The notes below the pieces were generated by a model, which was given only the letters and a program-made list of their open reading frames with translations, ran no database searches and was not told the origin of the DNA. Source: Pseudomonadota bacterium (lineage in GTDB: Bacteria; Pseudomonadota; Gammaproteobacteria; Burkholderiales; Ferrovaceae). From it: 64,000 nt of DNA. Positions within the stretch are counted from its first letter, which is position 1. Each line of letters begins with the position of its first letter. Below, in pieces: positions 1 to 6,862 of the stretch. Where the stretch lies: the NCBI GenBank assembly GCA_021798835.1, contig JAJZBQ010000011.1:7005-71004 (forward strand), written 5' to 3'. A program made the position numbers and the translations under genes.

Positions 1-1
1 T

Positions 2-313
2 GCGGCCGCTGATGTCAGTTTTGCCATCGCAACAGGTTCTGATATCGCCATGAAAACCGCCGATGTAACATTGATGAACAGCGATCTGTTAACCGTCCTG
101 GACGCGATCGAATTATCAAAAGCCACTCTCACCAAGATCAAGCAAAACCTGTTCTTTGCATTCATCTACAATATCTTGGGAATTCCCCTGGCCGCACTAG
201 GGATGCTTAACCCCGTTGTTGCCGGTGCCACCATGGCCATGAGTTCGGTGTCTGTCGTCAGCAACTCATTGCTGCTTCGACGATGGAAAGCAGTAGTGAA
301 ATCCCCTCACTGA
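2..313 (+). CDS. copA: Cu(I)-translocating P1B-type ATPase, C-terminal part (runs in from the window edge)
   Basis: Frame open from position 2; TM7 YNILGIPLA and TM8 MAMSSVSV match the YN / MxxS Cu(I) motifs; followed by copZ and csoR. Confidence 0.9.
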   Translation, partial: AAADVSFAIATGSDIAMKTADVTLMNSDLLTVLDAIELSKATLTKIKQNLFFAFIYNILGIPLAALGMLNPVVAGATMAMSSVSVVSNSLLLRRWKAVVKSPH

Positions 314-327
314 TAAGGAGCACGAAA

Positions 328-537
328 GTGACGATAACCACACTAAACATCCAAGGAATGACCTGCACTGGCTGTGTAAACAGCGTCAAGCGGGCTGTGG
401 GCAGTCTGCCAGGCATCCTGCAGACGCAAGTTTCCCTAGAAAGAAGTCAGGTCACCATTGAGTACAATCCAGCCCAGGTTTCACCAGAAAAATTGAAGAT
501 CGCCATCATGGATGCAGGTTATGATGTCAAAGACTGA
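328..537 (+). CDS. copZ: Copper chaperone (HMA domain)
   Basis: GMTCTGC (MxCxxC) motif; GTG start at 328 chosen after AAGGAG RBS. Confidence 0.9.
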   Translation: MTITTLNIQGMTCTGCVNSVKRAVGSLPGILQTQVSLERSQVTIEYNPAQVSPEKLKIAIMDAGYDVKD

Positions 538-838
538 GTCCCCTACACCGTGCCATGACGGAGAAAAAACTGTTACACAACCCCACAAGAAAGCACTGCT
601 CAACCGTTTGAACCGCATTGCTGGCCAAGTCAAGGGAATCAGCAACATGATCGAAAGTGACCGTTACTGCATCGACATACTGACACAAATAAGCGCCATC
701 CAGTCGGCTCTCAATGCCGTGGTCATGCAACTTATCGAAGACCATACCAAAGGTTGTGTGCGAAAAGCCATATGGGAAGGAGATGGCGATGTAGCCATCT
801 CGGAATTGATGGGAGTTCTCAAAAAAATTAACCGGTAA
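521..838 (+). CDS. csoR: CsoR/RcnR-family metal-sensing repressor
   Basis: RLNRIAGQVKGI..YCIDILTQ..EDHTKGCV (C-H-C ligand pattern); start could be 512, 521 or 524. Confidence 0.85.
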   Translation: MMSKTESPTPCHDGEKTVTQPHKKALLNRLNRIAGQVKGISNMIESDRYCIDILTQISAIQSALNAVVMQLIEDHTKGCVRKAIWEGDGDVAISELMGVLKKINR

Positions 839-979
839 TCCTGTGTGCACCAACTATGTAACTCATCAAGCAAGCGCTATTCTTGAAAAAGCGAGACTTG
901 GTAAATTATAGGATTTTCCAACCATGACGAGATTGATACTCTTTGATCAGTTGTATTCAGAAGCCGTAACTCTCGACCC

Positions 980-1900
980 TCAGCACTGGACAGACGAGGA
1001 CGACCAAACTGGATCAGTTCCCCTTCCCTCAAGCCGCAATTTCCCCCAAAACGTCTGAAACGCCCCAAAGCCGAAGGCAGTACACCCACCCAGTTGAAGA
1101 TTTTCTCCCAACTTGAACAGACTATAAAAAGCCCCCACGGGCCCAGCATAATCCAATACCCCTTCCCATCCGCTGAATGCCATAGGCTGCTCTGTACGCT
1201 TTGATTGTCTTGAAAATGACATTTTTTTAACTTTCTGGTTGACCAAAACAACACTTGCCGACTGCCGTTCCCAATCGCGCTGTTGCCCATCATCATAAGG
1301 AAGCGCCGCGCCAGTAGCGTGGGCTACCTGGCTTATTCGCCCGAGGAGACGGCGCACGAGCCCAGAAAAACTGGGAGGTCCGGCCATCACCCCATTGTCT
1401 TCTTTAAGAATCAATGGAGTGATGGTCGAAAACCGCAGGTTATTACGTTGCCCCATGTCGTAATTGAAAAACTCCCTGGTAATGCGATGCGCTTCGGGAG
1501 CTCCGATCATTTCATCTACCTGCCCATAGTAGTAAGGCATCGGGTCACTGGAGCCATACTGCGCCCAATCAATAGTAAAGCGGTGACGATCCTGCCCCCG
1601 CAGCCCCTGCCTTCCCATGGCCTTGATGATTTCCGTGATATCTAACCCGGCATGGCAGGCATCACCCAGCAAGGTCACGCGCAACCGTGGGTAGTTAGGC
1701 AAAGGGGGAACGAGGGAATAGAGTCTAGTTGAATTTTCCCCCTCACCATAGAGCAACGTAAACAGGGATGGAGCAACATGACTCAAGGTATTTCCCAGCG
1801 CCCCATGCCAGACAGTGTGCCACTCATTATGAGGTAAATCCCCATGCAAAAAGAAGTCAAGCACCAGACAACACAGCGGGGGTTTGATCGGCTCTATCAT
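980..1900 (-). CDS. cas6: Cas6-family RAMP endoribonuclease (type III-associated/DUF2276-like), solitary
   Basis: N-terminal HGALG; central TPLILK..PSFSGLVRRLLGRI; RQSKR..MAFSGWEG; C-terminal G-rich loop LGGCTAFGFG. Confidence 0.85.
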   Translation of the reverse strand: MIEPIKPPLCCLVLDFFLHGDLPHNEWHTVWHGALGNTLSHVAPSLFTLLYGEGENSTRLYSLVPPLPNYPRLRVTLLGDACHAGLDITEIIKAMGRQGLRGQDRHRFTIDWAQYGSSDPMPYYYGQVDEMIGAPEAHRITREFFNYDMGQRNNLRFSTITPLILKEDNGVMAGPPSFSGLVRRLLGRISQVAHATGAALPYDDGQQRDWERQSASVVLVNQKVKKMSFSRQSKRTEQPMAFSGWEGVLDYAGPVGAFYSLFKLGENLQLGGCTAFGFGAFQTFWGKLRLEGRGTDPVWSSSSVQC

Positions 1901-2172
1901 CTCTGGACTCTGGGATACTCATGTTCCACATCGTTCTCCATTACCTAGGAATGGTTGAAAAAATTCAGCATGACTCTTGACTCAGAGACAACTCCTCAAG
2001 ACTAAATGGTAAACCATTACATTAAATATAGGCAATCCCTGTTTAATCGCTATCCATCCCACTGTTCTTCCGTGTCTGCTGCGCATGAAACATTCACTGC
2101 ACCAAAATTTTTTATGGATTTGTCACTTGAAGACGATCAGTGCCGACAATCATGTCAGTTCCAGGTTACAAA

Positions 2173-5361: not shown

Positions 5362-5548
5362 TCACCTATCAACAAAAAAACAGGCACTATGCGAGAAATG
5401 TCAGCAAATTGCATCTGAGATGGGGTCACAGTCTTACTCATCACTCAAGATTCCCTTTTTGGTATCTCTTGACATCCGCAGCAAATCGAACAGTTCTGAT
5501 CGGTTACCCGTTTGTGCAACGCCCGTGTACTACAACAAACATCAAAAA

Positions 5549-6862
<1,314 letters not shown>

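Follow-up and report, generated by a model that had tools for sequence, protein, structure and literature searches.

An orphan Cas6 paralogue outside the type III-B operon of a Ferrovaceae genome, most likely a spare crRNA-processing enzyme

Cas6 endoribonucleases consist of two tandem ferredoxin-like (RAMP) domains and carry a C-terminal glycine-rich loop of the GhGxxxxxGhG-like pattern with one or more basic residues. Their catalysis usually depends on a histidine on or near helix 1, and the cut, which is metal-independent, is made 8 nt upstream of the 3′-end of the repeat. The gene can be encoded apart from the type III effector genes, as in Thermus thermophilus (PMC5256923), and several Cas6 paralogues with cross-cleavage can be present in one genome (reviewed in PMC5965381; for Anabaena, bioRxiv 10.1101/2020.04.14.041012). 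Competition of one Cas6 with another has also been described, and in type III systems Cas6 is usually no part of the effector complex (PMC12102369).

Here, we describe an orphan cas6 gene in a window of 64 kb, by which we mean the whole stretch of DNA that was analysed (C13:7005-71004, from a 2.23-Mb assembly of 32 contigs that is 99.6% complete). The orphan resembles the known trans-acting paralogues (T. thermophilus Cas6A/B and Cas6-1/-2, the multiple Cas6 proteins of S. solfataricus, P. furiosus Cas6, and Anabaena Alr1482/Alr1566) in being a stand-alone RAMP endoribonuclease apart from type III effector genes, with an array of matching repeat type elsewhere in its genome. The documented trans-acting enzymes are of different Cas6 types and serve several arrays or systems. 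Here, in contrast, the two copies come from one narrow subfamily, with 62% identity, and share one array and one effector module. We regard the orphan as a Cas6 paralogue outside its operon, most probably an ordinary spare enzyme for crRNA processing and not a new host function. A lone Cas6 of this kind is expected biology, namely ordinary scattering and redundancy of cas genes, in a genome that also holds the cognate array and a full type III-B system.

The orphan belongs to the Cas6 endoribonuclease superfamily. It is an intact, uninterrupted ORF of 306 aa, exactly as an earlier sequence-only reading of the window had described it, and the assignment made there, a full-length Cas6-like RAMP, is borne out by profiles and fold alike. 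The Pfam model PF10040 (CRISPR_Cas6) gives 36 bits against a gathering threshold of 25 and also recovers the orphan above cut-off in a genome-wide scan, while the PADLOC Cas6 models PDLC01477 (residues 73-282) and PDLC01496 match with E-values of 4e-28 and 1.6e-19, respectively. The NCBIfam equivalog TIGR01877 (cas_cas6) was not reached (20.3 bits, cut-off 58.65). The Cas6 encoded within this genome's own type III-B operon is likewise only a weak match (22 bits) to PADLOC PDLC00956, which has the same name and length as the TIGR01877 model; since both proteins score weakly on models of this type, the orphan belongs to a different Cas6 subfamily and is not a non-Cas6. An AlphaFold2 model of moderate quality (pLDDT 62, pTM 0.54), built on a nine-sequence family alignment, displays the double βαββαβ pattern of two tandem ferredoxin-like domains. 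When this model was searched against the PDB by fold, the first 26 matches were all Cas6 or Cas6b (E down to 3e-8; probability 0.89-1.00, and 1.00 for the first 20), with low TM-scores of 0.3-0.4. The top matches were 4c9d, 4ill, 3i4h, and 7kft (probability 1.0, TM 0.3-0.4), and the 26 include T. thermophilus TTHB231, S. solfataricus and P. furiosus proteins, and the Cas6 domain of a Cas6-RT-Cas1 protein. No solved structure for the subfamily was detectable by sequence, as a PDB sequence-profile search of the orphan returned only spurious Pelle death-domain matches (E ~0.02) and nothing relevant.

Table 1. Coordinates of the orphan cas6 gene and its surroundings within the 64-kb window.
Feature	Position in window	Strand	Remarks
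Orphan cas6	980..1900	-	Intact 306-aa ORF; Cas6 profiles, fold
Region of homology with the cas6 gene found in the type III accessory module	1029..1903	-	64-70% DNA identity; blastn/tblastx
Private C-terminal tail (…LRLEGRGTDPVWSSSSVQC*), absent from relatives	980..1028	-	Taken as the 3′ boundary of the captured cassette
Codons W31-H32 of the family-invariant W-H-G, predicted helix 1	1805..1810	-	H32 a candidate catalytic His (inferred)
G-rich loop region (…EN267LQLGGC273TAFGFG279)	1064..1102	-	K267N and R/K273C, private losses
Gap upstream of cas6, 272 bp, to the PAS-GGDEF-EAL gene	1901..2172	-	No Cas_NE0113/CARF relic
Intergenic gap separating the stop codons of convergent csoR and cas6	839..979		No csx16 relic
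PAS-GGDEF-EAL gene, 1062 aa	2173..5361	-	Upstream of cas6, co-oriented
copA 3′-end, copZ, csoR	1..838	+	Convergent on cas6
purA	5549..6847	-	Congener synteny extends as far as this gene and is lost at its 3′-end

The surroundings of the gene (Table 1) agree with what had been read from the letters: the copA/copZ/csoR cluster is convergent, and the PAS-GGDEF-EAL gene is co-oriented across the gap of 272 bp. Neither a repeat-spacer array nor any other cas gene was found in the 64-kb window, again as described, and the 7-kb left flank (C13:1-7004), which lay outside that reading, is also free of cas genes and arrays. With the proteins of relatives' III-B and III-D modules as queries, no other type III module gene was found on contig C13. 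The orphan has a weak ribosome-binding site, and in the gap at 1901..2172 no consensus promoter or terminator was found, the scan having given no more than shuffled controls. Because there is no recognisable terminator between the GGDEF-EAL gene and cas6, read-through transcription of cas6 from that gene is possible. An Rfam search around cas6 returned no RNA, and no mobile-element signature or flanking repeats were present beyond chance-level short repeats, which give no hint of a capture route.

In synteny comparisons, purA served as the anchor, as the GGDEF-EAL gene belongs to a family with many paralogues and is unusable for this purpose. The gene order cop–cas6–GGDEF is not conserved in related genomes. 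The GGDEF-EAL gene has ~44% GC (genome ~53%), and congeners carry no ortholog of it 3′ of purA; the cop cluster of the window shares ~43% identity with the best CopA of congeners, which sits on other contigs. The genes that congeners carry 3′ of purA are at C28:38-48 kb in this genome, ~10 kb from a predicted defence island on that contig. As synteny ends at the purA 3′-end, the GGDEF-EAL gene is low in GC, and the cop cluster is non-orthologous, the data point to a rearranged, species-specific segment that was maybe horizontally acquired. The position of cas6 next to copper and c-di-GMP genes is no conserved partnership. Two strain-level indels, of 3 nt and 1 nt, were seen in the intergenic region between purA and the GGDEF-EAL gene (window 5380-5382 and 5465), just upstream of the GGDEF-EAL start, and the called GGDEF-EAL protein is 1060 aa in other strains rather than the 1062 aa found here.

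Scanning the complete assembly for arrays by k-mers revealed a CRISPR array at C28:74979-75974, comprising 15 copies of a 36-nt repeat (GTCTTAATCCCCTTCAGGAAGTCGGGGTAATGAAAT) with spacers of ~32-35 nt. In its flanks, PADLOC recognised a complete type III-B system. The adaptation genes encode RT-Cas1 (2.8e-110) and Cas2 (5e-20), and the effector complex comprises Cas10/Cmr2 (8.5e-70), Cmr1 (2.7e-24), Cmr3 (1.7e-62), Cmr4 (3.6e-66), Cmr5 (8.5e-26), and Cmr6 (5.4e-32). Signalling effectors are represented by a CARF-PD-DExK protein (Card1/Can-like), CARF-TM, a CARF5/Cas_NE0113 protein, and a CARF-HEPN Csx1, accompanied by Csx16. Between the CARF5 gene and csx16 lies a cas6 gene of its own (C28:68199-69059), encoding 307 aa (PDLC01477 1.1e-32), to which the orphan is 62% identical over 284 residues (E=3e-127). 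The sequence-only reading had allowed for an orphan that serves a distant array, and an array with a repeat of the cognate type does exist in this genome, which is not CRISPR-less. Since the distant III-B locus has its own Cas6, the orphan is a redundant paralogue and does not stand in, as the only enzyme acting in trans, for a Cas6 missing from that locus.

Profile and tblastn scans of the assembly found exactly two cas6 genes and one cas1 gene, the latter on C28. When all III-B and III-D module proteins of relatives were searched against the genome, each mapped once, to C28, with a second match (on C13) only for Cas6; it follows that cas6 alone has been duplicated. No III-D effector genes were found in the genome with these queries. 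One contig, C9 (4173 nt), is all N, so any cas genes or arrays on it are invisible to the genome scans. The III-B locus adjoins further defence genes (L001:32-4195, corresponding to C28:56031-60194), including an AbiTii-like gene (3e-39), an HNH/type II REase-like gene, and a DrmD-like fragment, and the region looks like a defence island. A mini-array of three type I-E-like repeats (GTTCCCCCGCGTATGCGGGGATG; 61-nt period) is located at C22:11886-12030 (L003). Its contig (14.7 kb) has no cas genes and the genome has no second Cas1, so the mini-array is apparently what is left of an I-E system that has been lost. We rejected this mini-array as a substrate of the orphan, as its repeat forms a strong hairpin of the Cas6e type, no I-E cas genes are nearby, and the sole Cas1 is on C28.

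The orphan's family is small, with seven clusters at E≤1e-10 among 5.8 billion proteins. All six of the other clusters are found inside type III operons, five of them with the gene order Band_7 – Card1 – CARF-TM – unknown ~400-aa protein – Cas_NE0113 – Cas6 – Csx16, and the distant P0007 locus has the accessory genes of this module in a different order. The accessory module is followed by Cmr genes (III-B) in some genomes and by III-D Cas10/Cas7/Cas5 genes in others (loci L001, L010, and L035-L039). The repeat GTCTTAATCCCCTTCAGGAAGTCGGGGTAATGAAAC is present in all five loci with a visible array, which represent four clusters and include both III-B and III-D systems, and it differs from the C28 repeat by one mismatch; the contigs of P0007 and G001 showed no array. 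The repeat is thus near-constant across the clade although the Cas6 proteins have diverged to 60-70% identity. The 36-nt repeat has only a weak stem of 4 bp (CCCC/GGGG), and we read its tail (…AUGAAAU/C) as similar to the 8-nt 5′ tags that Cas6 leaves on crRNAs.

Compared with the in-operon Cas6 proteins of this module (that of C28 and P0002-P0007), the orphan is of the same length, shares the invariant motifs WHG, TPLILKE, and QLGG.TAFGFGA, and over residues 1-288 is 60-69% identical to the five close clusters and 37% identical to P0007. It differs from them in the absence of flanking Cas_NE0113 and Csx16 genes, a new tail of 18 residues, and the substitutions R10C, R154N, K267N, and R/K273C. 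In DNA and six-frame comparisons, homology of the window to the modules begins at the ATG (~1903) and gives out at ~1029, some 17 codons short of the stop. Relatives have nothing that corresponds to the last 18 residues, which are private to the orphan, and no relics of the upstream Cas_NE0113/CARF gene or of csx16 were found beside the orphan.

The protein, differing from that of the window only at residue 2, was found on 22 contigs from independent metagenomes and MAGs of several samples; as these were retrieved by an exact-protein look-up, the count shows spread and not conservation. The core order on all 22 contigs is purA – GGDEF/EAL – cas6 – csoR – copZ – copA, while the DNA past copA varies between strains. 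The orphan is fixed at this site within the species, and its co-occurrence with the III-B locus is shown for the present genome. It is absent from 60 related genomes (seven congeners, the rest of the same family or order), only two of which carry any homologue, both inside type III loci, and no congener has a Cas6 beside cop or GGDEF genes.

Across the region, strains differ from the window by 0.3-0.7%. Between the window and the common allele, cas6 has five synonymous substitutions and one non-synonymous substitution (I2M, in the second codon), a comparison that is not biased by the exact-protein look-up. By our own binomial estimate, which takes ~1/3 of random transitions to be synonymous, this 5:1 ratio, on only six substitutions, corresponds to p≈0.02 and provides modest evidence of purifying selection on the orphan within the species. 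Pairwise dN/dS values between the orphan and its relatives are ~0.07-0.10, with dS saturated, and this long-term signal may mostly predate the capture. The family tree is star-like, with a branch of 0.58 for the orphan and 0.63 for the in-operon C28 copy. When duplicates are removed and each protein is compared with the other five close clusters, otherwise-invariant columns are broken at 10 of 140 positions in the orphan, 19 of 149 in the in-operon copy, and 15 of 145 in P0006. A relative-rate argument for relaxed selection was rejected, as the orphan's branch and its number of private substitutions are no larger than those of the in-operon copy.

Across the six other clusters, 80 columns are invariant, and the orphan retains 76 of them. 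These include the GFG and G-rich loop glycines and W31-H32-G33, the histidine of which (H32) is a candidate catalytic residue. The four otherwise conserved basic residues that it has lost (R10C, R154N, K267N, and R/K273C) each remove a positive charge. One of these changes lies inside the G-rich loop, where the family sequence QLGG(R/K)TAFGFG reads QLGGCTAFGFG in the orphan: all relatives carry R or K at position 273, which is C here, while the glycines are kept. Just ahead of it in the loop region, the otherwise invariant K267 has been replaced by N. Together, these losses could weaken or alter RNA binding.

In the reading that we prefer, and to which we give about even credence, the orphan is a captured, redundant Cas6 that binds and cleaves the C28 III-B pre-crRNA in trans, beside the in-operon Cas6. 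The gene would duplicate the module Cas6 in intact form, as a paralogue or xenologue, and would have been captured as a bare coding region in the species-specific segment beside purA. Its ancestors would all have served one 36-nt repeat, and 15 copies of this repeat are present in the genome's own III-B locus. Because the ancestral substrate is found in the same cell, trans cleavage of III-B pre-crRNA, 8 nt from the repeat 3′-end, appears most likely, the orphan being a processing enzyme that is either redundant with the in-operon one or auxiliary to it. Expression, RNA binding, and cleavage by the orphan are thus what we infer from the gene and its relatives. The proposal of a spare enzyme is weakened by the fact that the array already has a cognate Cas6, so that the need for a second one is not evident, and the lack of a recognisable promoter, the weak ribosome-binding site, and the four lost basic residues would also count against it. 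A rival reading is a functionless leftover, a piece of some second type III module that was horizontally transferred or lost; the gene would be intact only through recent capture and either not expressed or of no fitness effect. Such an origin is unlikely in our view. In its favour, the gene is an orphan in one species only among 61 related genomes, its segment is non-syntenic and compositionally mixed with neither partner genes nor a clear promoter, its C-terminal tail has been replaced along with the loss of basic charge, and strains that differ by just 0.3-0.7% make intactness by itself say little. However, a leftover would not be expected to show the 5:1 ratio of synonymous to non-synonymous changes, nor to break invariant positions no more often than genuine in-operon copies do. 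The coding sequence is also free of frameshifts and stops despite ~30% DNA divergence from every known relative, and, bar residue 2, the protein recurs on 22 contigs from several samples, which speaks, given the exact look-up, for spread only.

Other readings assign the orphan a changed role. It is distinctly improbable, we believe, that it is a selectively maintained, repurposed Cas6, the specificity or turnover of which would have been changed by the four substitutions (R10C, R154N, K267N, and R/K273C) and the new tail, so that it would either tune or slow the maturation of III-B crRNA or process or bind host transcripts unrelated to CRISPR; its gene might then share a transcript with the upstream c-di-GMP gene. 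We give even less credence to a regulatory competitor, which would still bind the III-B repeat and, through its altered G-loop and tail, mainly modulate crRNA maturation or the hand-off to the Cmr complex. Two diverged Cas6 proteins do face one array whose repeat is the single one of the clade, the private losses of basic residues lie near the RNA-binding loop while the WHG motif is retained, and there are precedents in T. thermophilus HB27 Cas6-2 (PMC12102369) and in the mutual interference of two Anabaena Cas6 proteins (bioRxiv 10.1101/2020.04.14.041012). Yet no sequence feature separates a competitor from plain redundancy, and since type III Cas6 is usually outside the effector complex (PMC12102369), the mechanism of competition for I-B Cascade assembly is not directly transferable. 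Least probable of those weighed here is a domesticated endoribonuclease or RNA-binder for host transcripts, which the sequence-only reading had proposed with the adjacent c-di-GMP or copper mRNAs as examples. A location outside any cas context, possible co-transcription with the GGDEF-EAL gene in the absence of a terminator, fixation in the species with a signal of purifying selection, and the altered set of basic residues would all suit such a role. Against it, a single species has this gene order, and in congeners cas6 is nowhere adjacent to cop or GGDEF genes; the genome contains no repeat-like sequence outside the array, near the gene or elsewhere, even when up to 9-10 mismatches are allowed; no Rfam RNA is nearby; the clade is tied to one repeat; and a cognate CRISPR substrate is in the same cell. 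The proposal found no support. The only partial match of 14 nt is an exact copy of the repeat 3′ half (CGGGGTAATGAAAT) at C31:31802-31815, for which ~0.02 occurrences are expected by chance. It lacks the rest of the repeat, the upstream 22 nt being unlike it, and is situated where two genes of an ABC-transporter-like operon meet; we consider it probably a coincidence.

The locus is a clear natural case in which one cas gene, from the ATG to near the stop, was excised from a conserved type III accessory module and became fixed in one species. Two Cas6 proteins that are 62% identical and face one array also constitute a tidy pair for the study of redundancy versus competition between paralogues. 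In the wider clade, one accessory block and one repeat are combined with either III-B or III-D effectors, a clean case in which effector modules are exchanged while the processing and signalling module stays constant. We also observed a conserved protein of ~390-410 aa encoded between the CARF-TM and Cas_NE0113 genes (L001:14241-15482 on the minus strand, with counterparts such as L035:3488-4654 and L037:3057-4259). It has no PADLOC or Pfam match and represents an uncharacterised type III accessory gene with consistent linkage.
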